This document shows positions 1,532 to 31,999 of a stretch of 32,000 nt of DNA, piece by piece. Under the pieces are notes generated by a model, which saw only the letters and a program-made list of their open reading frames with translations, had not been told where the DNA came from and ran no database searches. The DNA lies in NCBI GenBank assembly GCA_024275415.1, contig JAJRZD010000022.1, forward strand, positions 1 to 32,000, written 5' to 3'. The translations under genes and the position numbers were made by a program. Source of the DNA: an archaeon (lineage in GTDB: Archaea > Asgardarchaeota > Thorarchaeia > Thorarchaeales > Thorarchaeaceae). Numbering within the stretch: position 1 is the stretch's first letter; the number at the start of each line of letters is the position of its first letter.

Positions 1532-2056
1532 TCACTCAATAAGGACAAGGAGGTCGTTCGGTGTCACTGCGGAGCCGGTTTCAATGTTGACTTCTTTGAC
1601 AGTCCCTGACTTGGGCGCTTTGAGCTCGTTGAACATCTTCATCGCCTCCAGAATACATATTGTCTGCCCCGCATCCACAGCATCTCCGACTGAAACATGC
1701 ACCTCTGTTATCTTGCCGGGCATTGGTGGATATACGCCGCCAGCAACCTTCGGCCCTCCCCCACTTGTAGTTGCAGGGGCCTTGACCGCTTGAGTCTTGC
1801 TTACTCGTTGCCATTCTACAACTCGTGGCTGGTCATCAATCTCAATCTCCAGCTTCGAGCCTGTCTTTTTTATCAATTTGATGGCGAAATCATTGATCGT
1901 GTCATTGATGTGGAACGTCCCATCCTCACCCTGCTCTGCCTTGATCGTGAATGATTCATCGTCCACCTTGACTACCAGTAATCCTCCTTCATCAAGTCGT
2001 TCGATGGACACTTTGTAGACATTCTCGTCCAGCTTGATCTCATATTCCGAACTCAC
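1532..2056 (-). CDS. Biotin carboxyl carrier protein (biotin/lipoyl attachment domain with N-terminal extension)
   Basis: PPMPGKI...GDAVDAGQTICILEAMKMFNEL contains the AMKM biotinylation motif. Probable GTG start at 2056 overlaps the upstream stop (GTGA); the ORF track's 2182 start lies inside the upstream gene. Confidence 0.92.
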   Translation of the reverse strand: MSSEYEIKLDENVYKVSIERLDEGGLLVVKVDDESFTIKAEQGEDGTFHINDTINDFAIKLIKKTGSKLEIEIDDQPRVVEWQRVSKTQAVKAPATTSGGGPKVAGGVYPPMPGKITEVHVSVGDAVDAGQTICILEAMKMFNELKAPKSGTVKEVNIETGSAVTPNDLLVLIE

Positions 2057-3627
2057 AGTGCTCCCCCCTGTGTACGAGAACGCATCTGGTCTTTCCTTCC
2101 AGCAATCGACCATGCAGATGCTCCTCGTTCCCAACTTCCTGTGCTGGCAGAATGAAGTGTTTCCCGACCGTTCAAAGTCCATTGTTCTCCTGCAAAGGCT
2201 GTGGACTGAACATGTCCAGAGCTTCTTCCGCTGATGTGCAGGACTGTGGCAATCAGGGCAGCCTCCAGTTGAGGGGTCAGGCTTCCACGAGCGTTTCGTT
2301 TTGCGCGATGCTTTAGGAAGTCCAGAGCATATTGTGGGAACAGGGCGTATGAAACGAGGTCTCTAGGCTTGTGGGGGATGTCCTTCAGTGCCTCCCGTGC
2401 GGCAGGCAATTCAGGCTCGAGCAGATCAGCCGGTCGGACATTCAGGGGCTCCTCATCGCCGATGACTTTCTGCTTTATCTCGGGATCCACAGGCGCAGGG
2501 GGCCTCCCGTAGTAGCCTCTGAAATACTGCTTGACCTCTTGTGGGATGATGCTATACCGCTCTCCCGTGATGACGTTCAGGGTGGCCTGCGTGCCAACAA
2601 TCTGGCTGGAAGGTGTGACGAGGGGTGGATAGCCAAACTCTGCACGGACCCGTGGAACCTCAGCAAGCACCTCGTCGTATCGGTCAAGGGCTCCCTGTTC
2701 TTTGAGCTGATTATCAAGGTTAGATAGCATCCCACCAGGGATCTGAAATACAAGGACTTGGGGGTTGACTCCTTTCAACGCCCCTTCGAACTGAACGTAC
2801 TTCCGGCGAATCTTCCTGAAATAGTCTGCAATCTCGGAGAGGAGATTAAGGTCAAGACCAGTGTCGTAGGGTGTTCCGCGCAACGCCTCAACGATTGACT
2901 CTGTTGCTGGCTGCGATGTTGCCATCGCAAGTGATGATATGGCACAGTCAACAACATCCACCCCAGCCTCTGCAGCCTTCAGGTATGCCATTGCAGCCAT
3001 GCCACTCGTGTAGTGAGAGTGGAGCTGCACAGGGATGTCCATCTCCTCCTTAAGACCTTTCACAAGGTCGTACGCAGCCTGCGGGGATATCAGTCCTGCC
3101 ATGTCCTTGATGCATATGGAGTCCGCACCCATCTCGTAGAGCATCTTGGACTTCTCGATGAACTTCTCATTCGTATGGACTGGGCTCAGGGTGTAACTGA
3201 TGCTTGCTTGGACATGCCCACCCTCACGTTTGACGAACTTCATGGCAGCCTCCATATTGCGGACATCATTAAGTGCATCGAATATCCTAAAGATGTCGAT
3301 GCCCACCTTGACCGCCTCCACTACAAAAGCTTCTAGAACATCGTCGGGGTAGTGGCGATAGCCAACGATATTCTGGCCTCTCAGAAGCATCTGCATCTTG
3401 GTGTTTGGCATCGCGTCACTAAGGGCTTCAACACGTTCCCATGGATCCTCGTTTAGAAACCGCATCATTGAATCGAAGGTAGCACCACCAAACATCTCCA
3501 ATGAATAGTATCCTACCTTGTTCAGTTTCTCACAAATAGGAAGCATGTCCTCCGTTTTCATCCTCGTTGCAAGAAGAGATTGGTGAGCATCTCTAAGAAC
3601 CGTATCTGTAATGCATACTTTCGCCAT
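2053..3627 (-). CDS. pycB: Pyruvate/oxaloacetate carboxyltransferase subunit (PycB / OadA / transcarboxylase 5S-like) without biotin domain
   Basis: TDTVLRDAHQSLLATRM, GGATFD, MLLRGQN, IKDMAG, HSH, QIPGGM, PPLVTPSSQIVG motifs. No AMKM domain; instead a ~75-aa C-terminal tail. Confidence 0.92.
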   Translation of the reverse strand: MAKVCITDTVLRDAHQSLLATRMKTEDMLPICEKLNKVGYYSLEMFGGATFDSMMRFLNEDPWERVEALSDAMPNTKMQMLLRGQNIVGYRHYPDDVLEAFVVEAVKVGIDIFRIFDALNDVRNMEAAMKFVKREGGHVQASISYTLSPVHTNEKFIEKSKMLYEMGADSICIKDMAGLISPQAAYDLVKGLKEEMDIPVQLHSHYTSGMAAMAYLKAAEAGVDVVDCAISSLAMATSQPATESIVEALRGTPYDTGLDLNLLSEIADYFRKIRRKYVQFEGALKGVNPQVLVFQIPGGMLSNLDNQLKEQGALDRYDEVLAEVPRVRAEFGYPPLVTPSSQIVGTQATLNVITGERYSIIPQEVKQYFRGYYGRPPAPVDPEIKQKVIGDEEPLNVRPADLLEPELPAAREALKDIPHKPRDLVSYALFPQYALDFLKHRAKRNARGSLTPQLEAALIATVLHISGRSSGHVQSTAFAGEQWTLNGRETLHSASTGSWERGASAWSIAGRKDQMRSRTQGGAL

Positions 3628-3726
3628 TGCAAGCCATCCTATGCCTCACGGGTTTCGTATTTAGTCGTTCTGTTTTGGAGGGGGATCACGACAGACGTTG
3701 CAACCCCTTGAGATATTTTGCTTGAT

Positions 3727-3888
3727 ATGCCACTCATGACCACCTTTTACAGGAAAGTGAAGAGTGGAGGAAGCGTTGTCAATAACCGAGTGGAGTTCGA
3801 TGACAATGGGGGAACCATTGAGGGTCTTTTAAGAAAACATGAGTGTCCAATCCACTGGTTACAGACAGTGAAGAACTTCGTGGAATGA
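3727..3888 (+). CDS. Possible small protein (53 aa), below the ORF-track cut-off
   Basis: ATG at 3727 (second ATG 3736) to TGA 3886-3888: MPLMTTFYRKVKSGGSVVNNRVEFDDNGGTIEGLLRKHECPIHWLQTVKNFVE. Fills an otherwise empty intergenic gap; no family recognised. Confidence 0.3.
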   Translation: MPLMTTFYRKVKSGGSVVNNRVEFDDNGGTIEGLLRKHECPIHWLQTVKNFVE

Positions 3889-3973
3889 ATTGCAGAACCA
3901 AATGAAATACAGATAATGATTAAATGTGGTATTTGAGCATTAAGTGATACAGACTATAATCAGAGGTACTAAA

Positions 3974-4666
3974 ATGGCATTTGGAATTGTACATATTATT
4001 TATGCAATGAACGCTGCTGTGATGACACTCACTTTCGTCATAATATTCAAGAAGTACCTAACGGAAAAGAACAAGCTCACACTGATATTCTCACTGGTCA
4101 TTCTGACATATGCCGTTATCTGCACCATTTTTGTGGGGAGAGGTCTATTTGATGCAAATACAGCAGGAAGCATGCTCTTCCAAAGGCTCTATGTTGTGAC
4201 AATGCCCATTATCGGTATCTCTCTTGCCACATTCATCTTTTACCCGATCATCATTCAAAGGGGTGGTTTCAAGGATGGCGGGGCTGTAACACTGTTATAC
4301 ACCATTTTGTGGGCAGTAGCTTTCACGACCATGTTCATGCTTGGGACTGGAGAGATGACCTATCAATACAGCGAACTTGCTGTCGACCTATACTCGATAA
4401 CATGGGGAGGGCTATCCTATTCCCAAATCCTATCCATCATGTTGGTCATTGGAACCACCGATATAATTGGACTCGCCATAATGGTATATTTGGAATCCGA
4501 TCCTTTCTTTAAGACGCGGGCGCTGTTGCTCTTCGTTGGATGGCTTATGAGCGTGGTTGGCGTTGTACTTGTGATTATCCCAGGATTATTGATACTAAAC
4601 CCAGTTGTGTTCGGACTGGGAGGTTACATCATGGCTTATGGAATTCTTAGAAATCCACCACAATGA
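3974..4666 (+). CDS. Stand-alone 7-TM membrane protein (230 aa), paralog A
   Basis: ATG at 3974 preceded by GAGGT RBS. Seven hydrophobic segments by eye; colinear paralog at 6559-7250. Confidence 0.85.
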   Translation: MAFGIVHIIYAMNAAVMTLTFVIIFKKYLTEKNKLTLIFSLVILTYAVICTIFVGRGLFDANTAGSMLFQRLYVVTMPIIGISLATFIFYPIIIQRGGFKDGGAVTLLYTILWAVAFTTMFMLGTGEMTYQYSELAVDLYSITWGGLSYSQILSIMLVIGTTDIIGLAIMVYLESDPFFKTRALLLFVGWLMSVVGVVLVIIPGLLILNPVVFGLGGYIMAYGILRNPPQ

Positions 4667-4679
4667 AGGTGATATTGCA

Positions 4680-5504
4680 ATGTCAGTGGCCAAATCTCAA
4701 GAGATCTTTGTATTCTGTGACATTTACAAAAAGAACATCCTCCTCAAAATCCCTGAAAAAGGAGATGCGAAAAGAGTAGGAGGACTACTTGCAATCCTAT
4801 CAATCCATGGCAACCCGAAGCATGAGTCGTTGTTCTACTTGGATGCCAATTACAGGGTACGGGGTTGTGAGTATCCCGCGATTATCGAGTCAGAAACGAT
4901 CAGTACACACCCTGCACGGCTCCTTGCCAAGAAAGGGCTTACACTGGAACAGTTAGTGAGCTGCTTCGGAAACAAGTCGAAGACTGCAGTTTCGAACTTC
5001 ACAAAGTTCATCGTGCAGACGCTTATCCGGAACAACTCGTACCTCATCGAGTCGGACCTCATCAACGGAGATACGGTGCGCGACCACATCGAACTGCTGT
5101 TCAGTGAGCAGGGGATATCACTCACACTGATCCGAAGAGAAGAAGAGGACAAAGTCACAGGTATCTATCCCACGGTGTTTGATCTCGAATCTAAGAAGTT
5201 CCTCACGGAGGGAGTAAACCTGAAGATACCCTACTTCGAGAACCTCGTCAAGGACATCATGAAGGAAAAGGACAACTTCTACAGCCTGCAGAACGAACTC
5301 AGTAAGATGATTTATTCGTACACCAAACTAAAGGAGATCCTTTCGACGACCTCGTCATCAATCAAGGACACTGAGCTAGCTAGGGATATCTCTATCGACC
5401 TACCAGTCCTGACCATCCTTACGAAAATGGCTGAGAATGAGGGAATCGATATCAAAACCAAGGTCGAGTTCAATGGTATCGGTAGAGCGCTGAGGAGTTT
5501 CTAG
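4680..5504 (+). CDS. Hypothetical cytoplasmic protein, probably co-transcribed with 7-TM paralog A
   Basis: ATG 4680 with AGGTGA RBS, 13 nt after the upstream stop. N-terminal HGNPKH...YLDANYRVRG motif resembles domains I recall from Asgard hypothetical proteins. Confidence 0.8.
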   Translation: MSVAKSQEIFVFCDIYKKNILLKIPEKGDAKRVGGLLAILSIHGNPKHESLFYLDANYRVRGCEYPAIIESETISTHPARLLAKKGLTLEQLVSCFGNKSKTAVSNFTKFIVQTLIRNNSYLIESDLINGDTVRDHIELLFSEQGISLTLIRREEEDKVTGIYPTVFDLESKKFLTEGVNLKIPYFENLVKDIMKEKDNFYSLQNELSKMIYSYTKLKEILSTTSSSIKDTELARDISIDLPVLTILTKMAENEGIDIKTKVEFNGIGRALRSF

Positions 5505-5555
5505 GATTCTCAGTTGCCGAGAGGTTGTACAAAAGACATTGTGCTGCCGTCAGGG

Positions 5556-5915
5556 TCATCTTTGCCTCTTTAGAACGACTTCGATGATGCCGTTTCGAAT
5601 ATCCCACGAATATTCGCCGGTCATATCGCGGCTCAATCCATACCGTCTTAGAAAATCATTTTCAAATGATTTGATTTCGAGGATACGGCGGTCACCTTTT
5701 GATAGTAGTTCTACAGTGGTATTAGCACCTGAGAATTGGGGGCCAAGTTCCATGACTAAAAGGACATGGTCATCGTATTTGATGACCTCTTCAGACCTAG
5801 GTGGCGATCTTGTCTGATGTGGTCGAGCTGGAAACCCAAAGAGTGAGGAATCATCCATCCACTTGCGCATACTCTTGAAGAGTTCATCGAACAAATCATC
5901 ATCCCAGTCGCTCAC
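5556..5915 (-). CDS. Divergent small heat-shock protein (Hsp20/alpha-crystallin-like)
   Basis: Acidic/aromatic N-terminus DDDLFDELFKSMRKWM and C-terminal NGIIEVVLK resembling the NGVLEV signature; 119 aa. Confidence 0.6.
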   Translation of the reverse strand: MSDWDDDLFDELFKSMRKWMDDSSLFGFPARPHQTRSPPRSEEVIKYDDHVLLVMELGPQFSGANTTVELLSKGDRRILEIKSFENDFLRRYGLSRDMTGEYSWDIRNGIIEVVLKRQR

Positions 5916-6097
5916 ATCACATCACCATTAGGTCATTATCTGTGGCGAAGGAGATTAGTCTTTTCAAATGCACTTCTAGCAACATGCCACTGATGTCAGA
6001 GGTCTATCCAAGACGAATAACCACACTCACGGATGCTGAGCGAAACTCCAATGGAAGAGTGAATAGTAAGATAAGGAACCACACTAAAGAGCATAAC

Positions 6098-6394
6098 ATG
6101 ACCGACAATTCACTGGAGGAACAGATAGGAGAAAAAGTTACTTTGGAGGGGACTGCCCAGAACTCAAAAGCTGGTGCAGTACTGCTTCTTGGAACAGGGA
6201 ACGTCATTTGGATCAGAAGAAAGGGTTCATGGGATGACACACGAGTTGGCAAGGAAATCACATTAACAGGGATTCTCAGGCGAGAAAAGTACATTCCCAA
6301 TCATATGACCTCAGATGATGGCGGAATTAGTCAAGGTGCTGAGGGACTACAGTATACACTCGAACTGACTCGCAGGTGTAGACTGACCGATTAA
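6098..6394 (+). CDS. Small hypothetical protein (98 aa, beta-rich)
   Basis: Probable start is the ATG at 6098 (MTDNSLEEQIGEKVTLEGTAQNSKAGAVLL...), inside the longer ORF 5942-6394. Protein-like composition downstream of that Met. Confidence 0.6.
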   Translation: MTDNSLEEQIGEKVTLEGTAQNSKAGAVLLLGTGNVIWIRRKGSWDDTRVGKEITLTGILRREKYIPNHMTSDDGGISQGAEGLQYTLELTRRCRLTD

Positions 6395-6558
6395 ATTTGT
6401 TGAATCTCACATATATCGAGAGGATCTGTTGCTAAGACATTCGTGTAACCAAGTACTATGTAGGGACAATTCGTGCGGTTTCTACGAACCATTTCTATGC
6501 AGATAATCGTTAAATAGCACATATACGAGTAGATTACGAAAAATAAGGCGGTATAATA

Positions 6559-7250
6559 ATGGCTTTCGGAATTCTGCATGTTGTATATGCAATAAATGCT
6601 GCGGCAATGATGGTGTGTTTCACTTTGGTTGCCAAGAAGTATTTATCTGAGAGAATAGGATCACGCTGATATTCGCGCTGTTCATCTTAACATATGCGGT
6701 AATCTGTATTCTTTTCGTTGGAAGGGGATTCTTTGATGTCAATACGATAGGAAGTATGCTGTTTCACCGCCTCTATGTCATGGCGATGGCAGTCATTAGT
6801 ATTATTCTTGGTATGTTCGTGCTCTATCCCGTCATTGTGCAGAGAGGTGGACTCAGACACGGTGGCGTGATTTCCATAATTTTTACGATAGACTGGCTAC
6901 TGTTCATATCTTCGTTTCTGATGGTTACCACAGGCGACATGTCCTATCTCTATACTGAACTTAATGCAGATTTCTATAGTATCTCGTGGGGAGCTGTCCC
7001 CTACTCATTTATCCTATTAGAAATGTTAGGCATGGGTATTGTGAATGTCACCGGGCTTGGCGCGATGACCTATTTGGAAACAGACCCGTTCTTCAAGAAA
7101 CGGGCATTCATGCTGTTCTTAGGTTACCTTCTGAGTCTGGTTGCAGTTCTCATCGTAACGATTCGGAGTTTGGTGATACTGAATCCAATCATATTTGGGT
7201 TGGGAGGTGCCGTCATGTCATACGGAATCCTCCGAAAACCTCCTCAGTAA
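6559..7250 (+). pseudogene. 7-TM membrane protein paralog B, frameshifted by a 1-nt deletion near 6654 (or sequencing error)
   Basis: ATG 6559 gives MAFGILHVVYAINAAAMMVCFTLVAKKYLSE, matching paralog A, then hits TGA at 6667. Shifting frame restores NRITLIFALFILTYAVICILFVGRG into ORF 6756-7250. Length is 692 nt versus 693 nt for paralog A. Confidence 0.85.
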
Positions 7251-7442
7251 GGACAGTCAGATGAAGACATGCCATGCCGGAGGTTCTCCGAAAACTCTCC
7301 TGTCAGTCCATTGTCCAGTCAGGGTCTTCGAAGGAAGTTATTCCGAAACGATTGTATCTTTGTCAAAATAGAGCAATCAATTTATTTGGACAATACCTAG
7401 AGCGGAAGCGGGGTCGCAAGCGGAAGAGCTGGGTGTTGGATT

Positions 7443-8939
7443 GTGAACAAGAAACAAGCAGTAATCAGCGTTTTCAATAAGACCGGGATTGTGGAGTTTT
7501 GCAAACAGATAGCAGACAAATTTGACTTCATCAGCACAGGCAAAACGGCGACTGTGCTTTGTGAAGCTGGGCTCCCCGTACAAGAGGTAAAAGATGTAAC
7601 GGGGTTCCCTGAAATCTTAGATGGCCGTGTGAAAACGCTCCACCCTCTAATCATGGGAGGAGTCCTTGGGAGAGAAGATCAAGAAGAAGAAATGAGAAGA
7701 CTGGGAATAGCGCCCATTCGACTTGTCGTAGTGAATCTATATCCCTTCGAAGAGATTGTTTCAAAACCTCATTCACTAGACGATGCAATCGAGGGTATAG
7801 ATATTGGAGGTGTTACTCTTCTCCGCGGGGCGGCTAAGAATTTCATGAATGTGATTGTGGTCAGCTCTCCAGATGATTACAGTTAAGTCGCTGATGCCAT
7901 TGTGAACGGCGGGATTACAGTAGAGATGAGAAAAGAACTTGCTGAGAAAGCCTTTCAGCATACTGCCATGTATGATATTGCAATCGGCAGGTATCTCTCT
8001 GGTGGGAAGACATTTCCTGAAACTTTCATGATGGGCTTTCAAAATGCACAGGTACTTCGTTATGGTGAGAATTGGCACCAGGAGGCAAGATATTATCTTG
8101 AAAAGGAAAGGGAACCATTCTACGAGCAAATACACGGCAAGCCTGTTTCATATAATAATCTCGTTGACTTTTATACTGCTATTGGAATCCTTTCAGAAAC
8201 CGAGGAACCATCATGTGCCATAATCAAGCATACAAGCCCTTGTGGGTTCGCATCAGCTGAATCCATCGAAAGAGCATTCGACGATGCATTCGCTACAGAC
8301 AATCTCTCTGCATTCGGTTCAGTAATGGGGTTCAATAGGGAGGTCACTGAGGAACTTGCAAAGAAACTGAATGCAATGTTCGTCGATGCTGTCATAGCAC
8401 CTAGGTTTGAGGACAACGCCCTAAAGATACTCAAGAGAAAGAAAAAGGTCATTCTTTGTCAGTTAAGAGATTACAGGATTCCCCGACTCTCCGTGAAACT
8501 TGTCCCGAACGGTATCCTTGTACAACCTACAGATACACGCCGGCTGACAATAGATGATCTGACTGTTGTCACACAACGGCAACCGACTGAACAAGAGTTG
8601 AATGACATGCTCTTTGCGTGGATGGTCGTGAAGTACACCAAGTCAAATGCAGCTGTTATCAGTACTGAAACAAGAACATTAGGTGTGGGCATGGGACAGT
8701 CCTCAAGGATTGCTGCGGTCCAGCTTGCCCTGCAAAGGGCTGGCGAAAGGGCAGAGGGATCTGTCATGGCGTCCGATGCCTTCTTCCCCTATCGTGATTC
8801 AATCGATGCGGCCACCTCAAAAGGAGTGAAAGCGATCATCGCTCCTGGAGGTTCTGTCCGCGATGCAGAGTCCATTGAGGCTGCAGATGAGGCATGCATC
8901 ACTATGGTCTGGTCAGGAGTTCGCTCTTTCCTGCACTGA
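7443..8939 (+). pseudogene. purH: Bifunctional AICAR transformylase/IMP cyclohydrolase interrupted by one in-frame TAA (7884-7886)
   Basis: [85 protein letters not shown]. The two ORFs share one frame: PDDYS*VADAIVNGG. Confidence 0.9.
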
Positions 8940-9088
8940 GCGATATCATTTGCTCGCATCATACACACTATCGCTATAGACAGAACTTCGACAACGTTCT
9001 CGATCATATTTGACAAGCAAATAGAATTGGAGTCCAGAATCATCAACGTATCCTTAGAATTGTCAGTGATAAGAAGAAAAGGAGTGGT

Positions 9089-9132
9089 GGTCCTTGATCA
9101 GATTGTTCCCCCAAAGCAGTTGATCAAGGACC
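9089..9132. terminator. Strong hairpin between convergent purH and regulator genes, possible terminator or RNA structure
   Basis: Perfect 12-bp inverted repeat GGTCCTTGATCA (9089-9100) / TGATCAAGGACC (9121-9132); a pyrimidine/T-rich tract follows on the minus strand. Confidence 0.5.
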
Positions 9133-9430
9133 TATGAAGAGAATCGCAATCGGCTTGTTGGAGAGGACACAATCGGTCCCCCCCGACCACTGCTTTCGTC
9201 GTGGGGCGCTAACATGTGGTGGTTCCTGGTTAGTGGAACTCTCTGGCGTATGTTATCTATACTATTTGTGATATATAAGGCGATGCTTCGAAAAATCATT
9301 GTCTGGAACCTTCAGAGAATACGCCAAAACGCCAATTTCAGAGTGGTTTTTGCATCACGGTCAGTATACGTAAATTAGTGGAAACATTTGTGGATTTTTA
9401 CACTTGTTCCACTGCAATTCTGTTTCCGAG

Positions 9431-11080
9431 TTATGGGAGAGCGCTGAGCCATTCATTTACTTCATCCTCGGAGTTATGCCATATCTGCGACTCCTCATCC
9501 CACAGGGTTATGACTTTCTCAGTCCACGCATCTTCAGAAACGTACCACGGCCCGATGATAGAGTGCGAATCCAACAACATAGGCTTCATGTTGGGAAACA
9601 ATGATTGCAATACAAGTGCCATCCCTTGCAGTCCGCCATCTGGCAATCTCAGAAAAAGCATCCCATCATTATCACCTCCAATAAGAGATTGTGTGTAAGG
9701 GAGTCTCTGCCCCCACGAAATAACCGCATCAGCATAGGATGGCTCAGGGATATGGACAAAGAGGGATTCGTTCAACCCACAATGATGAAGGTCATACGAA
9801 TCTCGAAGGAGACCATGACTCTTCAGTTCGGTCAGCCGTGTCACCAAGCGTTTATACTTGACTCCTAAATGACATCTGATCTCGCGGAGAGGGATGCCCG
9901 TTGCATATTCTCCTATGAGACGAAAATCAGAATGTCTCAATGTCATGGGGAGTGCATCACATTTTTGCATATTTGGTGTCATCAAGACACTGAGGTTCTC
10001 ATTGTATATTCTTCGAAGATGCGGACCGAACAGCTCCCATGGCAATTCCCATGTGTTGCTTTCGGCACTATAATGGTCAAAACAACGGTTCAGACATTTC
10101 AAGTTGACAGGGATGAACCTGGTTTCGATGTCGTAGTCTGAGAGGATTCGAAGATAGAGATTGATGATATGAAAATTACGAGGGTTCTGAGGTACAAGGA
10201 GGTGAGCGACAATATCATGTTCGCCTGCAATGATGCGATTTGCAGAGTACAGGAAAGGGAAATCGATGATGTAGTCTGCGATCGATGACTCGTCGTAGCT
10301 GTTCATAAGCAATATGAACTCCTTCATACCCAATCCAGGATGAAATACCTCGACAGTTCGCCGAAGGACACCATGTTCTTGAAGCGTCGCCAGCCTACGC
10401 GAAACCCACGAAACTGTTTTCCCTGTTTCAGCAGCTAGTTCGATACGTTTTGTTTCAGGTGCTAATAACAGGCGACGGATGAGGCTGAAATCGGTTCGGG
10501 TGAGCTGGACTGAGAAGCGGCGCACACGTTCAAGCATATGTAAGACATAATCGGTTTCATCAAGTTTGAGACCACTTCTTTTCATCATTATGTACTCGTT
10601 GAGAAGTTTGTTGAAGTACTGCGCACCCGAGAAGCTCTGAAACAGATGGAACGCTGCAGAAGGATCATAGAATCCAGTAGATTCGTCCCCCTTTGTACCA
10701 GCGTAATACTTCCATCGTGAGTACCAGTATTTCAGGCTCTTTGACGGTAGCCACAGTGCACCAAAACCATATGCAAAATCCTCGAGGGCGGTTTCCTCGA
10801 ACCTTTCCTTCTCCAATGCCTTTCGCATGTACCCTCGCGCAAGCACACCAATATGGGGGATTTTCCCTCGAAGGCATTCATTGGACAAGACGAGTCTGTT
10901 CCCTTCGATCCACCCTCCAAAGTCGCGCTGACGAGACTCGTATGATGGGCGGATATCTTCTGGGGGTGAAACATAGTCAAGTCCAAAGTCCTTCTGGATA
11001 CGTTTAGAGATGCGCTCCCATGTGATGGTGATAAGCCCAGCCCATGAATCTCGGAACATACTGCCCTTGGATGAGTTCAT
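9431..11080 (-). CDS. Large transcriptional regulator with two Lrp/AsnC-type winged-helix modules
   Basis: LTRTDFSLIRRL...RIELAAETGKTVSWVSRRLATLQEHGVL...GLG and LRHSDFRLI...LREIRCHLGV...RLTELKSHGLL...CGL, each followed by an alpha/beta domain. Confidence 0.8.
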   Translation of the reverse strand: MNSSKGSMFRDSWAGLITITWERISKRIQKDFGLDYVSPPEDIRPSYESRQRDFGGWIEGNRLVLSNECLRGKIPHIGVLARGYMRKALEKERFEETALEDFAYGFGALWLPSKSLKYWYSRWKYYAGTKGDESTGFYDPSAAFHLFQSFSGAQYFNKLLNEYIMMKRSGLKLDETDYVLHMLERVRRFSVQLTRTDFSLIRRLLLAPETKRIELAAETGKTVSWVSRRLATLQEHGVLRRTVEVFHPGLGMKEFILLMNSYDESSIADYIIDFPFLYSANRIIAGEHDIVAHLLVPQNPRNFHIINLYLRILSDYDIETRFIPVNLKCLNRCFDHYSAESNTWELPWELFGPHLRRIYNENLSVLMTPNMQKCDALPMTLRHSDFRLIGEYATGIPLREIRCHLGVKYKRLVTRLTELKSHGLLRDSYDLHHCGLNESLFVHIPEPSYADAVISWGQRLPYTQSLIGGDNDGMLFLRLPDGGLQGMALVLQSLFPNMKPMLLDSHSIIGPWYVSEDAWTEKVITLWDEESQIWHNSEDEVNEWLSALP

Positions 11081-11275
11081 TTCGCATTTAAGTTTCTGGA
11101 TAGTTAGATAACGTTTCGACAGAGTCCATCTGGTTCAGATGTGACACCGCATAAAGAATTGAAAGTGTTCATAATCTTTTAAACTGGAAATAAAGGCATC
11201 ATAGCACTCTCTCCGATTCTGAGAATTCTATCTCCTTTCAGAGTCATTATATACCAAATCAAGGGCATTTTCCTT

Positions 11276-12487: not shown

Positions 12488-12495
12488 AAACATAG

Positions 12496-21591: not shown

Positions 21592-21623
21592 GGGGACGAG
21601 ATTGTTCGTCCCCTCCCTTTTTT
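21592..21623 (+). terminator. Hairpin + T-tract terminator
   Basis: GGGGACGA-GATTGT-TCGTCCCC followed by TCCC and TTTTTT, 28 nt after the stop at 21564. Confidence 0.7.
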
Positions 21624-21825
21624 GAGCATCACGAAAATGTCATTTGGTCAATCGTTGCAGACAAACTTGTATTTTCTGTCCGAATCACGATAAAGGGCGC
21701 ATCACTAGTCTAAGGGGACACTGAATTTCATCTGAAATGTGTCAGCAATTAGATGAACATGTTCGAGAAAAGCAGAAATATGCTATTGGGAATTAATTGG
21801 TACTATTTGACTGGAAAGGAATTTG

Positions 21826-24800
21826 ATGGAACAAGATGCTGCGTCTGCAACATATGCACGCCAACCTAAGATATACGAAACTGATGTACTAAAGATGCTG
21901 GTGTTTTCGTTTTTGATCAGTATTATGCTCATACCAGTTATGGTAGAGGCTCCCGTCCATAATGTGAAGACAATTGTCCCTACAGCCTTGGAGCATAAGG
22001 TTGCCACAACAGCCAACCTGCGCATGGTACAGTTGACGGATCTGTCTGAACACTTGGCAACTGGGAATGTGAGTAGCTACCGAGGGTTCGCATATTCAGA
22101 TGATATATCAGATGTTTTGAGGTTCGTTGACCCGATAAATCAGGTCACGTTGAACTAGTCGATCGAAACAGGAACTTTGTACAGAAGAACCATTATCGGG
22201 GAGGACATGGACAAGGATGGTAGCACGGAATTCATGATAATGAACGATAACGGAACTGCTATCAACCTGCTGATTGTTGATTTTAACGATGGCCTGACTA
22301 CCAAATTTAATGTGTCTATCATAAATCCTCTTAGCATAACAACAGGGAACTTTGGGGGTGATGCAAGTCTGGATATTGCAGTATTTGGACAGTATAGTAT
22401 CGTCATACTTGATGTCCAGTCAGGCAGCCTTCTAGGTAATTACTCGATTGCAGTTGGTGATTGGTATTCTGCATATTCAGTTGGATATTTCTTGGAAACG
22501 TCACAAGATTCGATTGCAGTGGGTATCTGGCCGGCAAGCAATATTGCAAGGATGGATATTGTAGCTGGAAATGGCTCGGTGATGAGAAGTATTACTTTGC
22601 ACAACCAAGTTTTCGGACTGGCATCTTTTGAGTACGGTGCGGGACTGGACGAAGTAGCAGTATCAATAACCGATGGCAATTTGACAGTCATAGCGCCATC
22701 GACAATGACTTCGGTCTTCAACTTGACAGGCTTACCCGAGCAAAGTTATGTTTTACCAGGAGTCTTGAACAATGACAACCAAGAAGACCTCGTTGTAGTT
22801 TCTACCATGAGTAACTACTCGATATTCATTGATGGGTCGAATGGGTCGATAATACGACAGGGAAATAGACTAGCTAATTTGGCACAGTCACCTATTAGTG
22901 GAAACCCACCCTCTCCGGTGGTGAGCAGTGGATACATGGACGCGGATAATCTCACAGACTACACTGTTCTAAGTTATCCGGGCAATAAACCATCCTTTCT
23001 AAGGGGTTCTGATGGAACCATAGGATATGAGGAGAGTAGGATTCCCGACAAGTCGAGTCAAATCCTCGTATTCGATATAAATGGGAATTCAAGAGACGAC
23101 ATCATAGTGCTGAACGGCCTGACAGCCTACATTGTCTTAAGCGATACCCAAGGGCCGCAGGTCATCCCCGAGCCCCTGTCGCCGCTGCACCCCACAATCC
23201 AAGACCCTTACATCAAGATAGAGGTCGAGGTGGTAGAACAGCTTGATGTCATCGCAGCGGATCTGTACATCCGTTATGACGGGGGCAATTGGAGTCGGCC
23301 TACCGAGAACCTTCAGGTATCAGGAAACAGATACTTTGCATTCCTCGTGGGAAAACCAGAGGGCTTCTACGAGTATTATCTTGTCTTTCAGGATACATAC
23401 TTTAACATTGGCACTCTGGGCAATGAAACAAACCCAATGAATTTCACAGTTGCAGGACATCTTTCATGGTTCGACACAAAATACCAGAGCACAGGACTGA
23501 ATCATCGCCTCATGAGCATTGGAAACTCTTCTGATGGTAGAGAGGTGATTTATACGCTGGATTCGAACTCTGGAAATATCATCCTAGAACGATATTCTAC
23601 CAGAGGAGAGAATCAGACACTGGCAATATTTCCATTTGGCAACTACAGTGATTTCTCAATCTACACAGGATTAATGGATGGTGACAACATCCTTGACCCG
23701 ATACTCTTGCTGTATAGCGCAACGACATACGATGTGAACGTGTCAATCTATCATGGGAACTCCGGCTCATTATGGTTTACAACTCAATACCCATACAGAA
23801 ACACATTCCAACCCGAATCTGCACAGGTATTCGATATTGATAATGACGGGATAGACGAGTTCTTCTTCGTTGCTGAGAACAGTACCTACAACGGGGAGTT
23901 CCTCATCAGATTGCGTGCCGACGGGTCATGGTCACGAACCGAAATTTCTGCGGTAGGAGCAGAGTCCTACGGGTTGAGCATTGCCAAAACGATAAATGAC
24001 CACTCAGTGGAGGCAGTCGTTTCTGCAAGTACAGGATACGTGGAGATATTCAATGCCACTAGCATGAGTGTAATATCGACTCATAATGTGACTAGATCTG
24101 ACCACGCGAGTACGATGGCTATAAGCGTCTACGTACTCAATAACAGATCTGAATCGTATTCGAAGTTCTTGGTGTATCTGCGGTTCACTGACGCTTCTGG
24201 GGTTTCAAGTGGTTTTCAGATCTTTGATGCATCAGTACCTAGCATCAATGAAACCGTAATATATGGTAATACGGATGGATACTATTACGCGCCAATCCTC
24301 ATAGATGTGGATGACGATGGGATTGATGAGGTGTTTGGCGTCAATAGAATAACCAATGAGCTAACACTGTTCAGGCTGACGGCCCCTGCAACAATAGATT
24401 GGACAATCCCAGGTAGCACTTCTGATTTCTTAAGCTCACTAGCTGTTGATTTCGATGGTGACGGTCAAGATGAGATCGGGGTCTTCACAAGGCAGGACGA
24501 GAACCTCACGATCGTATCGCTTGATGGAACCGTCGAACGGACACTGCCGGTCGGACAGGTGTATGGCAGTATGCAACTGAGCAGCGTTGACTTGGGCTAC
24601 GGAGAGGAAATAGCAGCATATCCATTGATACAAGACGGCGTCACCAAAATAGCTGTCATCCGCGATATTGTACAGATCCGACGCCTTAATGTTTCACTGA
24701 CTTACGCACCATCAGACCTTTTACAAGGGGATACATTGACAGTTGATGTCGATGTGACAAACATCTATGCTGAGCCCATTAACGATGCAGAAGTTTACTT

Positions 24801-27348
24801 GACCATCCACTACCTTTCAGGTGGTAGTATCATCAACCAGACGAAAGGCCTTATTTTTGGAACCTCGAACTATTCGACTTCGGTTGCTGTGAACTGGCCT
24901 ATCGGTATTGTCAATCTGAGCGTGTCTGTCAGACATCCGCTCTACGACCAATGGGAAGAATACTACCCCGGTGCATTGACAATAAGAAGTGTCCTAGATG
25001 TGCTGGTCTATACTAGGGATATCGTGGTGCAGAACAGCACATTCTCTGCGAATATAACCGTGGCAGATAGTCTTGGATCACGAGTGTCTGATGCAGAGGT
25101 ATTGGTAACTTTGGGGGGTGTGGACTATACCGCGCCTTATGTGGGCTCTCAATATAGGGTATCAATTTCAAACATTGGCCTCTCACCAGGAGAGTATACT
25201 GTCAATACGACTGTTAATCACCCATATGCTTTTGGCATCTCGTCTGCTGTTGCCAATTTCGGGTTAGAAACAGACAAGCTCGTAGTTTCGCAGGGGATAC
25301 CTGCACTTGTGGAACAAGATGATGTGTTCGAGGGCTGGGTGAACATAACGGACGCCTTCAATAGCCCACTTGAGAACGCCCAAGTCACGCTTGTTGGTAG
25401 CGAGATGGAATTCGGTCTCATTGAAGTCGAGCCAGGGGCGTATTATCTGGACTCTCTCATGACTTTGAGTGTGGGCAACCATTCATTCACCATCATTGTT
25501 GAGCATGGATTTGTTCAAGGAACGGAATTTGGGCAGGTTCAAATCATAGTCATGGGAAACCTCATTCCGGTTATCGCGGAAGTGCCACCTGTAGATGGCG
25601 GTGGGGTGTTCTCCGTTTCTGTGTTCATAAGTGATGGATATGGAACGATGCCGAGTGATACATGGGTGCTGATCGAGATAGACGGAAGGAACGTCACGGC
25701 GATTCACGAATCGGGAACAAAATTCACTGCTGAATTGAATGCTACTTATCCTGCCGGAATGTGGAACTTCACAGTGTACTATGGCTCAGTATTCAGCCGT
25801 GCTAGGAAGATGACCAACAGCATATTTGTCTACTCGAACCCGGTGGTCGAAACCCTATATTCAGATGGCGAATGGGAGGTAATGCAGGGGAACGACACGA
25901 TAATAGAGGTCCAGGTGCGAGACTGGCAGGGCACATTGATGAAGAATGCATCAGTGACTCTCTTCATTCGGGGAATCACCTATACACTAGGGTATGTCAC
26001 TGAAGGGGTGTATCAGGCAGAAGTGTCCACGGTTGGATGGCCTTACGGCATTCACACATACTACTTGACTGTTGGTGGCGAATACCTGTATCAGAATCAA
26101 TACAGTGGAAACCTGACGGTCATTGCCCGTCCTACTATCATTATCAGGCCTTCAACTACAACACCTGAACAGCTCTCCACACTCTCCATCACCGTAGATG
26201 TCAAAGACCTCTATGACAATCCGATAACGGGTCTTCATCTTGAAGTCACATTTCAGGATGTGACAAAGATTGCAGAAGAAACATCAGTGAAGGGCACCTA
26301 TGAAGTTGAATTCACGGTGGAAGGTGTCGGACATGGCTCAAGGGAGATTGTGGTCGGTCTTGAGGGCAGTCTAACATATCCAAAGAACACATCGATGACG
26401 GTCACTGTAATGGTTGCTGTACCGCGATTGGATTTGAGTCCGATGCAAATCTATACAGCTGCTGGATTATCATTTTTGATAAGCCTCATCGGAGTACTAC
26501 TGTTCATCAAGATATCGTCTACCATCCTATCATCTCCAAGAAAGGTCGAGGATGTTACTCGAAGTGTCACATACCTCGATAGGACATATCTTGTCATCGT
26601 CGCTGCTTCAGGAGCATTGGTCGTCCATTCATGGCTGCTCTATCTGAATGGCTCTTATGTATATGCACTCCTTGAGAGTGTCATATTACTTGGAGCATCG
26701 GTACTGCTCTACGGACTATGGCTTTATCGAGATGCCTACGCTTCGATACTTGTTTCTGGTGATATCAACAGGAAACGTACTGCTCTAGGGATGTGGCATC
26801 TTGTTCTTGTCCCGTTCATCGTCCTTTTGATATTCGAATACGGGCGATATATCGAGATATTCGCATGGAATATATTGGAGAACGTGACCCCATTCGTCAT
26901 CGGCAACGTGGTGATCGTCCCGATGCTGATGACAATACTGACAACATACCTGAGTAGTATCGTAGTCGTTGTTGTCAGCTTCTATTGGGAGATACAAAAG
27001 GGACTTCGCCGAATCGAAGATATGAAAAATTCAGGCACTCCAGGGAATGTGATCACGGATGAACAAGTGCTACTTATAGGAAGAACTGGAGCATCAATAC
27101 GCATAAAGTTCCTCATGTTCCTGTTGGTTCTAGGTGCGATAACGGTAATGCAACTGGAATTTCTCAGGAGCTACTCAATGGTTGCGATTGTCCTGCTCCC
27201 AATCCTGTTTCTGGTATTGATACCATTCATCTCAACGAGAATCATCAAAGGATTGCCACATGCATATAGAAGAATTCAGCGTACAAGAGAGGGGGGGTTT
27301 GACGCGGAAGAAACATATGAACCGGATGAATTAATAATGGATACCTGA
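21826..27348 (+). CDS. Giant surface protein (~1840 aa): signal peptide, FG-GAP-like Ca-binding repeats, Ig-like domains, C-terminal 7-TM bundle; interrupted by an in-frame TAG at 22156-22158
   Basis: ORFs 21823-22158 and 22177-27348 share one frame (VTLN*SIETGTLYRR). Signal MLVFSFLISIMLIPVMVEA lies in the first part. DxDxDG-type motifs (DMDKDG, DINGNSRDD, DIDNDGIDE, DVDDDGIDE, DFDGDGQDE); many NxS/T sequons; seven hydrophobic segments from ~26449 to ~27240. Confidence 0.85.
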
Positions 27349-27497
27349 ACACACATGGCAGATCACACCAGCCAATAGGAGTCACTGAGAACTCCTCAAA
27401 GATGCGTTGGAAACCAGTCCCATCTTGATGTGCTCGGAATCACATCTGTCGGCAGACCCATAGTTGCGGGTATTACCGACGAGTCCATCAAATGAAA

Positions 27498-29051
27498 TCA
27501 CAATGGGATATTCCCATGTTTCTTTGGCGGACGGGTTTGACGCTTGGTTTCAAGCAGGTCTAGTCCTTTGCATATGAGGGGACGGGTTTCGTGGGGGAAG
27601 ATGACCTTGTCTATGTACCCTAGTCCTGCCGCGATATAGGGGTTGGCGAATTTCTCTCGGTACTCCTTGGTCAGTTCAGCCCGCTTTTTCTCCTTGTTTT
27701 TTGCGGCCTCGATCTCTTTCCTGAAGATGATATTGATTGCACCATCAGGACCCATTACTGCAATCTCTGCAGTAGGCCACGCGAACACAAGGTCTGCTCC
27801 AATATGTTTGGATGCCATGACATCAAAAGCACCACCATATCCTTTCCTAGTGATGATGGTGATGAGAGGGACGGTGGCCTCGGCGTACGCATAGAGAATT
27901 TTTGCACCGTGACGAATGATCCCTCCCCATTCTTGTGCAGTCCCTGGTAGGTATCCCGGCACATCTTGGAACGTGATGATGGGGATGTTGAATGCATCAC
28001 AAGTACGGACAAAACGAGCACATTTGTCAGAAGCGTTGATGTCAATTGTCCCCGCAAGATGGGCTGGGTTCTGACCAACGATGCCGACAGCCCGACCATC
28101 GAACCTCGCAAAGCCGGTAATCATGTTCTGAGCCCAGTGTTCATGAACCTCGAAGAACTCGCCATTGTCCACAAGTTTTCTGACTACATCACGCATATCG
28201 TATGGCTTGTTGGGATCATCGGGTACGATATCATCAATCGACATATCGACATCATCGGGAGCGTGTCCAGTTTCAAACCGCGGCGGATCCTCCATATTGT
28301 TGCTCGGCAAATAACTGAGCAGCGTTCGTATCTGGTCGAAACAATGCTCTTCGTCCTCGCTGGCAAACTGGGCAACACCACTCACGGAGTTGTGGGTCAT
28401 TGCACCACCAAGCTCCTCGAAGGTAACTTCCTCCCCCGTCACCGTCTTGATGACATCGGGGCCCGTGATGAACATGTGAGCCGATTCTTTCACCATGATG
28501 GTAAAATCTGTGACTGCTGGGCTATACACAGCACCACCAGCACAAGGGCCCAGGACAGCAGAGATTTGAGGAATGACGCCGCTTGCAAGAGTGTTGCGTC
28601 TGAATATCTTACAATATGCCACGAGACTCTTGATGCCTTCTTGCACCCGCGCACCGGCTCCCGAGTTCAACCCGACAAGAGGGGCACCCACTTCCATGGC
28701 AAGATCCATTATCTTTACGATCTTCTCGCCGTACATCTCGGATAATGAGCCGCCAAAGACAGTGAAATCCTGGCTGAAAATGAAAACCTTTCTCCCGTTG
28801 ATGGTGCCATAACCGGTCACAACGCCATCGCCATAGATCTTCTTCTTGTCCATCCCGAAGTTGGTTTCACGGTGCACTACGAACTCGTCAATCTCGACAA
28901 AGGAGCCCGGATCAAGGAGTTTGTCGATTCTCTCTCTTGCAGTGAGCCGGCCTCGATCATGCTCCCGCTTGATTCTCTCTTCGCCGCCTCCAAGTTTGGC
29001 TTCTTCTCGCTTCCGTTTCAATTCCTCGAATTTATCATTGGCCATGTTCAT
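27498..29051 (-). CDS. pccB: Acyl-CoA carboxyltransferase subunit (PccB / MmdA / transcarboxylase 12S-like)
   Basis: GGGEERI...GRLTARERI..LLDPGSF, GDGVVTG, SQDFTVFGGS, GARVQEG, GPCAGGAVYSPA, DVPGYLPG..QE.GGIIRHGAK, YGGA, KKHGNIPL. Confidence 0.95.
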   Translation of the reverse strand: MNMANDKFEELKRKREEAKLGGGEERIKREHDRGRLTARERIDKLLDPGSFVEIDEFVVHRETNFGMDKKKIYGDGVVTGYGTINGRKVFIFSQDFTVFGGSLSEMYGEKIVKIMDLAMEVGAPLVGLNSGAGARVQEGIKSLVAYCKIFRRNTLASGVIPQISAVLGPCAGGAVYSPAVTDFTIMVKESAHMFITGPDVIKTVTGEEVTFEELGGAMTHNSVSGVAQFASEDEEHCFDQIRTLLSYLPSNNMEDPPRFETGHAPDDVDMSIDDIVPDDPNKPYDMRDVVRKLVDNGEFFEVHEHWAQNMITGFARFDGRAVGIVGQNPAHLAGTIDINASDKCARFVRTCDAFNIPIITFQDVPGYLPGTAQEWGGIIRHGAKILYAYAEATVPLITIITRKGYGGAFDVMASKHIGADLVFAWPTAEIAVMGPDGAINIIFRKEIEAAKNKEKKRAELTKEYREKFANPYIAAGLGYIDKVIFPHETRPLICKGLDLLETKRQTRPPKKHGNIPL

Positions 29052-30363: not shown

Positions 30364-31224
30364 TTAGGATTTGTTGGCTTCTCGAAGATACGAAACTTTG
30401 GCGAACTCATCCAGATCACTCCGGGTCAACGCCTCATTAATGGACATCCCTATCAGTTCTACGCCTAGTTTCAAAGATGCTTTGTCGAGCCATGCTTCTC
30501 TTGTGTCCCGTGCGATAATGCTAGCTGCTGCAACGGCACATTCTTTCTCGGCATTATGCATCTGAACGACTTCAGCCTGTGTGACATCGATTCGCCGTTC
30601 AAGTCGCTCATTCATCTTCTTCCTGTCAAACTCGTCGATGACTATTCTGATTGGCTGTGCTTTTACTCTCAGATCTTCGAATACATTCCCGATGGCTTCT
30701 GCATGTGCCCAGGCAAGGAGATGATTGAGATTCTTGCCCTCAGCACGCATCTCGGCAAGGCGTCGTTCAAAGGTCTTTGGTGGTATTGTTATCGATTGGG
30801 ATGCAAGAGAATGCTCTTCGATTTCGAAAGCGAGCTCTCCAATCTTGTAGGGGGACAGCTGCTTGCTGTCCATGACTCCAACACTGCGAAGGTAGGCCTC
30901 CTGCTCTGCATCAATCCCGACGGCCGCGACAACAAGCGGGCCTAGCCACTCGCCCTTACCAGCTTCATCAGACCCGATGGTAATGGCAGTAGAGCCACCG
31001 GACATGATTTGCTGTACTGAATCCCTGAGCAGCTTTGCGGTTTCAGGGGAGTTGGCCACGACCTTCCCGCTGGAATAGCCAACAATCAGCCCTCCTGCAT
31101 AATAGAAGCGAAACGCCTCGTATTGGTTGGAAAGGCGTCGTTGATGTGTGTTCTCGTGATCCATAAGAAGCACACGTAGTTCATCCAAATGCTCAGGCGA
31201 TATCTTTACCACGTAGGGATCCAT
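30364..31224 (-). CDS. rnhC: Ribonuclease H type 2, HIII-like (with N-terminal TBP-like domain)
   Basis: IGSDEAGKGEWLGPLVVAA, GVMDSK, LNHLLAWAHAEAI, IDEF, AVAAASIIAR plus a ~75-aa N-terminal domain ending GYSSGKVV. Probable ATG 31224, 4 nt after the birA stop. Confidence 0.8.
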   Translation of the reverse strand: MDPYVVKISPEHLDELRVLLMDHENTHQRRLSNQYEAFRFYYAGGLIVGYSSGKVVANSPETAKLLRDSVQQIMSGGSTAITIGSDEAGKGEWLGPLVVAAVGIDAEQEAYLRSVGVMDSKQLSPYKIGELAFEIEEHSLASQSITIPPKTFERRLAEMRAEGKNLNHLLAWAHAEAIGNVFEDLRVKAQPIRIVIDEFDRKKMNERLERRIDVTQAEVVQMHNAEKECAVAAASIIARDTREAWLDKASLKLGVELIGMSINEALTRSDLDEFAKVSYLREANKS

Positions 31225-31228
31225 TCTT

Positions 31229-31999
31229 CTAATCACATCCTCGAAGGTGAGTGACTTCACCTGAATTGACACGATGTGTACGACCTGCATCATCTCGTAT
31301 CAATAGTGAACCATCTCTCTCGATGTCAAAAGCAATGCCCACCAGTTCTGTCCCATGTATCCGTGCCACTACCTGTTTCCCAAGGGTCAGACAGTGTGTC
31401 CTATACACGGAAACTACGTTCGATAGGGAAGGGCACTCCACAAGCCAAGATTCAAGTGCGACCACAATGGCAGCGAGGAACTCTTCAAGATTGTGCTCCT
31501 TTCCAGTTTCAATCCTGAGAGATGTAGCATGTGAACGGATTTCTTCAGGAAACATGTTCGGAAGTGTGTTGACGTTGATGCCAGCACCAACAACAAGTCC
31601 CTTTATTCTTTCATCATCCGTGACTAGTTCTGAGAGGATACCACATACCTTCCTGTTGCTTACTAACAGGTCATTCGGCCACTTGAGCATACACTCCAAT
31701 CCGGATTTTTTATGGATAACTTCGCGGATGACACAGGCGACCATCAGCCCGTAGAGCGGAAGGGAAACCACCTCGGATGACGGGAGAAGAACCAGTGAGA
31801 AATACAGACCTCCCTTGGGAGAATGCCAAGCACGTCCTAGTCTTCCTCGTCCATGAGTCTGCGCTTCAGCAACAACGAGTGTCCCATGTCCAGCCCCTTG
31901 GGATAGCAGTCCTTTCGCGATAGTGTTCGTTGAATCGACTATATCGAACACCTCTACACGGTGTTGTGCGGATGATGTCAGCAGATTTGAGAGTAACCG
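31229..31999 (-). CDS. birA: Biotin--[acetyl-CoA-carboxylase] ligase; 5' end runs off the window
   Basis: DSTN, AEAQTHGRGRLGRAWHSP, KWPNDL, KVCGIL, GAGINV motifs; frame is open to the window edge. Confidence 0.95.
   Translation of the reverse strand, partial: RLLSNLLTSSAQHRVEVFDIVDSTNTIAKGLLSQGAGHGTLVVAEAQTHGRGRLGRAWHSPKGGLYFSLVLLPSSEVVSLPLYGLMVACVIREVIHKKSGLECMLKWPNDLLVSNRKVCGILSELVTDDERIKGLVVGAGINVNTLPNMFPEEIRSHATSLRIETGKEHNLEEFLAAIVVALESWLVECPSLSNVVSVYRTHCLTLGKQVVARIHGTELVGIAFDIERDGSLLIRDDAGRTHRVNSGEVTHLRGCD

Follow-up and report, generated by a model that had tools for sequence, protein, structure and literature searches.

What reaction can a biotin-dependent gene set catalyse in an archaeon in which neither a biotin carboxylase nor a carboxybiotin-driven sodium pump is detected? 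The question is raised by a 32,000-nucleotide stretch of DNA (the window; contig C125, positions 1-32000) from the Ca. Thorarchaeota genome G000, a 3.53-Mb assembly of 127 contigs (92.9% complete, 4.5% contaminated). The window encodes a 5S-like keto-acid carboxyltransferase, a 12S-like acyl-CoA carboxyltransferase, a free 1.3S-like biotin carrier and the biotin protein ligase BirA. Judging from sequence, this set is likely to form an ATP-independent biotin transcarboxylase that would catalyse (S)-methylmalonyl-CoA + pyruvate <-> propionyl-CoA + oxaloacetate. For two transferases that share a single carrier, with neither ATP-driven loading nor pump-driven unloading, such an exchange is the simplest reaction available.

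In the proposed mechanism, the single carrier would receive biotin at Lys140 from BirA, the 12S-like protein would move a carboxyl group between methylmalonyl-CoA/propionyl-CoA and biotin, and the 5S-like metal enzyme would move it between biotin and pyruvate/oxaloacetate. The enzyme would link the succinyl-CoA/propionyl-CoA branch of metabolism to the pyruvate/oxaloacetate node. The sequence features of EC 2.1.3.1 were all found: a keto-acid carboxyltransferase free of a biotinyl domain, a propionyl-type acyl-CoA carboxyltransferase, a shared carrier (AMKM) with its ligase, and no carboxylase or beta subunit.

Search for a biotin carboxylase or sodium pump

Searches of the window and of the whole source genome revealed no biotin carboxylase (PF02785, PF02786, PF00289 and tblastn with an archaeal PycA) and no OadB/MmdB (PF03977 and tblastn), extending to the genome what the original prediction had stated for the window. 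The two best PF02786 matches in the genome were weak and were rejected as biotin carboxylases, one of them being succinyl-CoA synthetase beta. The genome has no strong PF02786 match of any kind, and the carbamoyl-phosphate synthase large subunit went undetected in this assembly.

The survey was extended to 87 Thor-class genomes (24 of high quality, two single-contig) and to 151 Asgard genomes from 23 families, in which Thor is family f1 and the others include f12, f13 and f16. Class and phylum counts come from metagenome-assembled, partly incomplete and related genomes, which are non-independent samples, and are given with no statistic. Across the class, the 5S-like protein occurs in 73 of 87 genomes (23 of the 24 of high quality) and the 12S-like protein in 75 (22 of 24). 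Biotin carboxylase was found in none of the 87 genomes by PF02785 and in none of 37 by PF00289. Full OadB is missing from all 87 (PF03977): the only match over the cut-off is a 48-residue piece at a contig end in G047, read as likely contamination, and one further match falls below the cut-off. No co-occurring carboxylase or pump emerged that could explain these subunits as ordinary carboxylase or decarboxylase parts, the outcome that the original prediction had set against itself, and its transcarboxylase reading is kept.

At the phylum level, PF02785 was detected in 43 of the 151 genomes, with scores above 110 bits elsewhere in Asgard; the search is thus not blind to Asgard biotin carboxylases. 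The PYC_OADA domain was found in 46 genomes (34 of 37 in f1 plus the source genome, 7/7 in f12, 3/3 in f13 and 1/1 in f16), and the 5S-like protein is confined to 4 of the 23 sampled families. A single genome, G114, breaks the separation, being the only one of the 46 with biotin carboxylase or OadB, the only one of the 43 with PYC_OADA and the only one of the 151 with OadB. Families f12 and f13 share the gene set, likewise without a detectable carboxylase or pump.

Outside Asgard, an archaeal contig from a genome labelled Methanobacteriota (CSMAG_2992; L141, 2317-4240) carries a 12S gene followed directly by a 5S-like gene. In that 1.3-Mb genome no biotin carboxylase was seen, and a short OadB-like match lies at a contig end.

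The two carboxyltransferases

The 5S-like protein is encoded in a single copy in the source genome, and its closest named relatives are from Ca. Thorarchaeota (87% identity). Its catalytic part spans approximately residues 1-447. The protein scores 761 bits with the NCBIfam PycB model, 709 with OadA (cut-off 756) and 580 with the Propionibacterium 5S model PRK12330 (cut-off 827). RDAHQS, Lys174, His203/His205 and Thr338, which we take to be catalytic, are invariant among 37 aligned Asgard homologues, and these motifs align with the active sites of OadA, PycB and Propionibacterium 5S. Comparison of the AlphaFold2 (AF2) model with 5ks8, 2nx9 and 1rqb gave TMq values of 0.77-0.78, and identity to 1rqb (Propionibacterium 5S) is about 50%.

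The 12S-like protein is the sole acyl-CoA carboxyltransferase found in the genome. Its nearest solved structures are of PccB (1vrg, 726 bits; 1xnv, 720), with Propionibacterium 12S (1on3) at 591, and its score lies under the NCBIfam MmdA cut-off. The catalytic motifs are invariant, and an Asp occupies the position of D422 in Streptomyces coelicolor PccB, a residue that favours propionyl-CoA in that species. A scan for bacterial-type promoters and terminators at the 12S gene gave matches at chance level only.

Biotin carrier and ligase

A Pfam Biotin_lipoyl search of the genome recovered this carrier as the only one; two other matches were rejected, both being E2 lipoyl protein. The original prediction of a 5S protein devoid of a biotin domain and overlapped by its carrier was confirmed: no biotinyl domain was found, and the GTG start of the carrier (2056) overlaps the 5S stop codon as GTGA, preceded by a G-rich run resembling a ribosome-binding site. 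A longer, 216-aa reading frame from an ATG at 2182 was rejected, relatives starting at the position of GTG 2056. BirA lies upstream of 12S in the Thor, f12, f13 and f16 clusters.

The carrier comprises an N-terminal eight-strand domain (residues 1-84), a linker and a biotinyl domain with the EAMKM motif; the AF2 model places eight strands and no helix in residues 1-84. Foldseek returned PCC/MCC alpha chains as top matches over about 180 columns (7ybu, E 3e-11), and carrier homologues gave weak Pfam BT matches at E<=0.1 (ACCA_BT in 19 of 36, PCC_BT in 7 of 36). These two lines of evidence support reading the N-domain as a BT-like barrel.

The single-contig Thor genome G058:C1 (L217, 668-2908) has a carrier match over the first 31 residues only, followed by an unrelated 746-aa frame. 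The carrier gene of this locus may be disrupted or moved.

The C-terminal tail and a PCC-type scaffold

The tail of the 5S-like protein is kept in every Thor, f12, f13 and f16 homologue, with A457, W506, G510 and R511 invariant; the W..GR motif occurs in two copies in Thor and in one in f12, f13 and f16. A helix is predicted at residues 452-468 in the AF2 model. When a profile of the tail was run against 22,311 open reading frames (ORFs), the top non-training match came from G114, where a small protein is encoded upstream of OadB (E 0.003, weak); next were two biotin carboxylases of Asgard origin, matched at their C-termini (E 0.11 and 0.35, weak). A search aimed at shorter free-standing relatives of the tail gave none at E<=0.01. 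Pfam ACC_epsilon matched 2 of 37 homologues only (best E 0.11), and not the tail in the source genome.

In the mycobacterial LCC, the N-terminal helix of AccE lies inside an eight-stranded barrel and its C-terminal hairpin is anchored on the carboxyltransferase hexamer (PMC13012033). By its sequence, the 5S tail may well be a tether of this AccE/BT-helix type. It is reasonably probable that the complex adopts a PCC-type scaffold, in which the tail helix would fill the eight-strand barrel of the carrier (together, a BT domain in split form) and the W..GR part would rest on the 12S hexamer. On such a scaffold the 5S-like protein would occupy the place of biotin carboxylase in archaeal acyl-CoA carboxylases.

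Weighing the alternatives

Several points weigh against a transcarboxylase. The evidence is drawn from sequence, and the argument proceeds largely by exclusion in related, non-independent metagenome-assembled genomes. Neither transferase reaches its family cut-off (Propionibacterium 5S and MmdA, respectively). G114 (f16, 9% contamination; L202, L212) has the 12S-5S cluster together with OadB, accompanied by a small upstream subunit, and a biotin carboxylase elsewhere; at this level of contamination, its assembly may be mixed. On the structural side, confidence in the tail model is <50 beyond residue 468, profile scores tie the tail to AccE/MmdD only weakly, the carrier was modelled with modest confidence (pLDDT 69, pTM 0.40), and VIA-align matches of the carrier are dominated by the biotinyl domain, with the N-domain barely probed. 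Finally, searches of the source genome, 30 class genomes and five f12/f13 genomes (PF02866 0/5) returned no canonical malate dehydrogenase (MDH) of the type resembling lactate dehydrogenase.

It is improbable, in our view, that a partner was missed, namely a divergent or non-homologous biotin carboxylase or a membrane carboxybiotin decarboxylase, which would make the transferases the arms of PYC and PCC or of a shared Na+-pumping decarboxylase. The 5S tail does resemble the soluble MmdD/OadG tails, the carrier barrel is as in PCC-type carriers, and G114 holds the cluster plus OadB and biotin carboxylase. Yet three Pfam models and two tblastn queries came up empty in the source genome, the carboxylase is missing from all 87 class genomes, the two single-contig ones included, when the same model scores other Asgard carboxylases above 110 bits, and no unexplained gene common to the Thor, f12 and f13 clusters was seen.

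The tight linkage of the set to epimerase (over the TIGR03081 cut-off), mutase and MeaB in four Asgard families, the Asp at the PccB D422 position and keto-acid site motifs as in PycB, OadA and 5S also render a similarly low probability to the same ATP-free exchange on other main substrates (acetyl-CoA/malonyl-CoA, butyryl-CoA/ethylmalonyl-CoA or another 2-oxoacid), despite a second mutase large subunit in the genome and a co-located thiolase-like protein devoid of the active-site Cys. PccB-type transferases are often promiscuous, which would suit such substrates. Least probable of all is a pair of uncoupled soluble decarboxylases, in which carboxybiotin would lose CO2 without a pump, oxaloacetate yielding pyruvate and methylmalonyl-CoA yielding propionyl-CoA with no energy conserved. 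Known biotin decarboxylases need a beta subunit to protonate carboxybiotin, and both transferases are kept on one carrier in three families, which makes direct exchange simpler; in favour of decarboxylases, the best NCBIfam labels are OadA-like and MmdA-like, and the passages concerned in Imachi et al. 2020 annotate the 12S protein as methylmalonyl-CoA decarboxylase.

The surrounding pathway

Many parts of a Wood-Werkman pathway around the candidate transcarboxylase are present: mutase, epimerase, MeaB, class I fumarase, TfrAB-like reductase, SdhAB and succinyl-CoA synthetase. The class I fumarase and a TfrA/TfrB-like thiol:fumarate reductase form one operon (C120:22555-27876), an aspartase/FumC-family gene stands in line with sdhA and sdhB (C71:31420-35306), and succinyl-CoA synthetase and malic enzyme are encoded on C17 and C1. 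GTP-dependent phosphoenolpyruvate carboxykinase (GTP-PEPCK) is present in 21 of 25 class genomes.

Because the canonical MDH was not found, the cycle cannot close as in Propionibacterium, and the textbook Wood-Werkman cycle implied by the original prediction is not supported. Ldh_2-type MDH was likewise not found in the source genome; malate:quinone oxidoreductase and other non-canonical types were not searched for. Class matches to PF00056 were rejected as MDH, since they cover the model partially and the proteins, mostly 380-480 aa long, were interpreted as other Rossmann proteins. If a canonical MDH is indeed lacking, oxaloacetate must be exchanged with phosphoenolpyruvate (by GTP-PEPCK) or aspartate, and malate must pass through malic enzyme.

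Two routes fit these constraints. In a reductive route, pyruvate would be converted to malate by malic enzyme, or oxaloacetate to aspartate and on to fumarate, and carbon would then pass through succinate, succinyl-CoA and methylmalonyl-CoA to propionyl-CoA. In an assimilatory route, propionyl-CoA from amino acids would be carboxylated at the expense of oxaloacetate. We lean slightly towards a propionate-forming flux, and regard disposal of propionyl-CoA as a real possibility that falls just short of being favoured.

Gene order and neighbouring features

The four genes that the original prediction had placed on the minus strand of the window were recovered there by Pfam and TIGR matches and coordinates (Table 1). 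They are not an unbroken run: an opposite-strand leucine-rich-repeat gene (29287-30204) stands, together with RNase HII, between BirA and 12S. Beyond the window, the same contig and strand carry methylmalonyl-CoA epimerase (35836-36243, over the TIGR03081 cut-off), the mutase large subunit (36253-37923), MeaB (37934-38893) and the B12-binding subunit (38917-39396). The search for mutase and epimerase that had been proposed thus ended on the same contig, with epimerase, mutase and MeaB 4-7 kb past the window end.

Table 1. Candidate transcarboxylase genes and neighbouring features in the window
Feature	Position	Strand	Description
Thiolase-fold protein without the usual active-site Cys	347..1519	-	NF004720 426 bits (cut-off 420); last gene of the Thor 5S-carrier operon
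Biotin carboxyl carrier (1.3S-like)	1532..2056	-	174 aa; Pfam Biotin_lipoyl; EAMKM, Lys140
5S-like pyruvate/oxaloacetate carboxyltransferase	2053..3627	-	524 aa; Pfam HMGL-like and PYC_OADA; no biotinyl domain
C-terminal tail of the 5S-like protein (aa 448-524)	2056..2286	-	Hydrophobic helix, linker, two W..GR-type motifs
Variable interval of unrelated genes between 12S and 5S	3628..27497	.	23.9 kb in this genome
12S-like acyl-CoA carboxyltransferase, PccB/MmdA type	27498..29051	-	517 aa; Pfam Carboxyl_trans 670 bits
RNase HII-family gene	30364..31293	-	Pfam RNase_HII; between BirA and 12S; conserved passenger of the Thor cluster
BirA biotin protein ligase	31229..32000	-	267 aa; TIGR00121 190 bits (cut-off 83); start at contig position 32032, outside the window

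In the compact Thor loci L077, L214 and L216, the order is mutase, epimerase, threonine aldolase, a major facilitator superfamily gene, an unknown gene, BirA, RNase HII, 12S, 5S, carrier and the thiolase-like gene, within ~13-17 kb; the stretch from mutase and epimerase through BirA, 12S and 5S to the carrier spans 10-15 kb in these loci and in f12/f13. The core shared by f12, f13 and f16 consists of epimerase, BirA, 12S, 5S and carrier, flanked by mutase genes in f12 and f13. The 12S gene directly adjoins 5S in genus g16 and in L206, L208 and L212. Among 36 Thor genomes, the 12S and 5S genes lie between 17 bp and 25 kb apart (median 4.1 kb; 19 of the gaps are shorter than 5 kb) in a survey that needs both genes on one contig and is therefore biased to short gaps; the gap in the source genome is near the top of the range. 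The dispersal described in the original prediction is accordingly real locally and not overall, since the genes are the two ends of a conserved cluster: the seemingly dispersed parts belong to a single cluster split apart by a stretch prone to insertions.

The 24-kb interval of the source genome yielded no remnants of 12S or 5S. Many Thor genomes carry extra fragments of the 12S 3' end and the 5S 5' end (residues 1-90) near or inside the 12S-5S interval (G052:C10, G027:C100, G042:C209, G054:C67, G051:C63, G030:C128, G056:C36, G077:C61 and G008:C53), with four or five 12S fragments in G052. The pattern suggests that genes were inserted repeatedly and that the flanking genes were partly duplicated in the process. 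The interval studied here contains, on the plus strand, genes for a secreted 461-aa protein (20179-21564) and a 1723-aa surface protein whose C-terminal part has several membrane segments (22177-27348). Also on the plus strand, purH appears as two in-frame ORFs (7443-8939), an MGS part (7443-7886) and an AICARFT part (7902-8939); in L072, of the same genus, it encodes one 543-aa protein. The split reflects an in-frame stop, a sequencing error or a recent break.

RNase HII occurs at the same place in L056, L076, L077, L213, L214 and L216 and is missing in L215 and f12/f13. In 27 of 30 Thor loci the thiolase-like gene comes directly after the carrier, and it has no match in the f12/f13/f16 clusters; its Cys-less motif (E-S/T-G-P-S-S/A-G; HDAF) is present in 10 of 10 copies checked, and the source genome has four other thiolase-family paralogues. 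This protein is probably not part of the enzyme.

Significance and relation to known systems

The transcarboxylase idea is already in print for Asgard, in passing, in the relevant passages of Imachi et al. 2020 and is not new in outline. There, an Asgard 'methylmalonyl-CoA transcarboxylase' was named from annotation and read as propionate fermentation (PMC7015854). Those passages use the same three-gene criterion (methylmalonyl-CoA decarboxylase, a biotin carboxyl carrier protein, plus pyruvate carboxylase), with trees of BirA and the carrier protein only, and take the trait as ancestral to Asgard; the present survey, by contrast, places 5S in 4 of the 23 families sampled and detected no MDH. 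The literature searched, incomplete in coverage, yielded no biochemically tested archaeal transcarboxylase and no other archaeal account. New here are the exclusion of carboxylase and pump at class and phylum level, the restriction of 5S to four of the families sampled, the proposed PCC-type scaffold and the absence of a detected MDH.

These results provide a three-protein target for a biochemical test of an archaeal transcarboxylase. Automatic labels such as 'pyruvate carboxylase', 'methylmalonyl-CoA decarboxylase' and 'propionyl-CoA carboxylase' would point to CO2 fixation driven by ATP or to Na+ pumping, neither of which these genomes can support. The restriction of 5S to 4 of 23 families, together with the missing MDH, qualifies the published view that propionate fermentation is general to Asgard. 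Should the split-BT model prove right, a carboxylase would have become a transcarboxylase by the exchange of one subunit.

The carboxyltransferase phylogeny proposed earlier was run for 5S only (40 rows, catalytic domain, midpoint-rooted and without Propionibacterium), and the tree gives no donor or direction of transfer. The Thor (100/100), f12 and f16 proteins group with two Firmicutes 5S proteins at 99/96, and f13 attaches to this group at 94/86; outside it fall methanogen-type PycB, OadA and the gut Clostridia proteins. The two Firmicutes genes sit in clusters of fumarase, succinyl-CoA synthetase, mutase, epimerase, 12S, MDH and 5S, an arrangement that matches the mmc cluster, whose mmcL is named 'transcarboxylase, 5S subunit' (PMC8892533). 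The 5S of such mmc-type syntrophic propionate oxidisers (Pelotomaculum-type mmcH/I/J/L) is the closest outside Asgard (64-66% identity) and likewise adjoins mutase, epimerase and a 12S/MmdA gene, whereas it is tail-less (449-463 aa) and its cluster includes MDH. Both Firmicutes genomes also have biotin carboxylases and OadB, so the exclusion argument fails there.

A broader scenario is possible but less likely than not. In three Asgard families the sole biotin enzyme would be a transcarboxylase built independently on the archaeal PCC scaffold, a tail-bearing pyruvate carboxyltransferase having replaced biotin carboxylase. It would serve a propionate/succinate route that has no MDH and is completed either by way of aspartate or by malic enzyme together with GTP-PEPCK, and its 5S would share ancestry with that of propionate-oxidising syntrophs among the Firmicutes.

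With the Na+-pumping OadABG and MmdABCDE systems, the Thor set shares OadA-like and MmdA-like catalytic domains and, by weak profile matches, a tail like the soluble part of OadG/MmdD; it differs in having no beta subunit or membrane-anchored gamma/delta subunit and in scoring under the OadA and MmdA cut-offs. Archaeal and Asgard PCC-type acyl-CoA carboxylases and the actinobacterial AccA3-AccD5-AccE complex have in common with it a PccB-type carboxyltransferase, a carrier with an N-terminal barrel and a partner subunit that ends in a helix and a Trp/Gly/Arg motif, as on the biotin carboxylases of other Asgard families (PMC13012033). In Thor, unlike in these systems, there is no ATP-dependent biotin carboxylase, and the tail is borne by the keto-acid carboxyltransferase.

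The transcarboxylase of Propionibacterium freudenreichii (EC 2.1.3.1; 12S/5S/1.3S) resembles the Thor set in its three components, in having neither biotin carboxylase nor pump and in the 5S fold (TMq 0.77); mutase and epimerase are present in Propionibacterium (PMC2909200), as in the Thor genome. The likeness drawn in the original prediction stands for subunit composition and not for orthology by NCBIfam cut-off. The Thor 5S scores below the family cut-off (580 against 827), the Thor 12S is closer to PccB than to 1on3, the Thor carrier has an eight-strand N-domain, a tether-like tail is fused to the Thor 5S, and no canonical MDH was found in Thor. A fourth small ORF of Propionibacterium, which is the C-terminal part of a longer 12S entry, is paired with the Thor tail by description only. 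On sequence grounds, the Thor enzyme would work like EC 2.1.3.1 while, by NCBIfam, falling outside the Propionibacterium-type 5S family.

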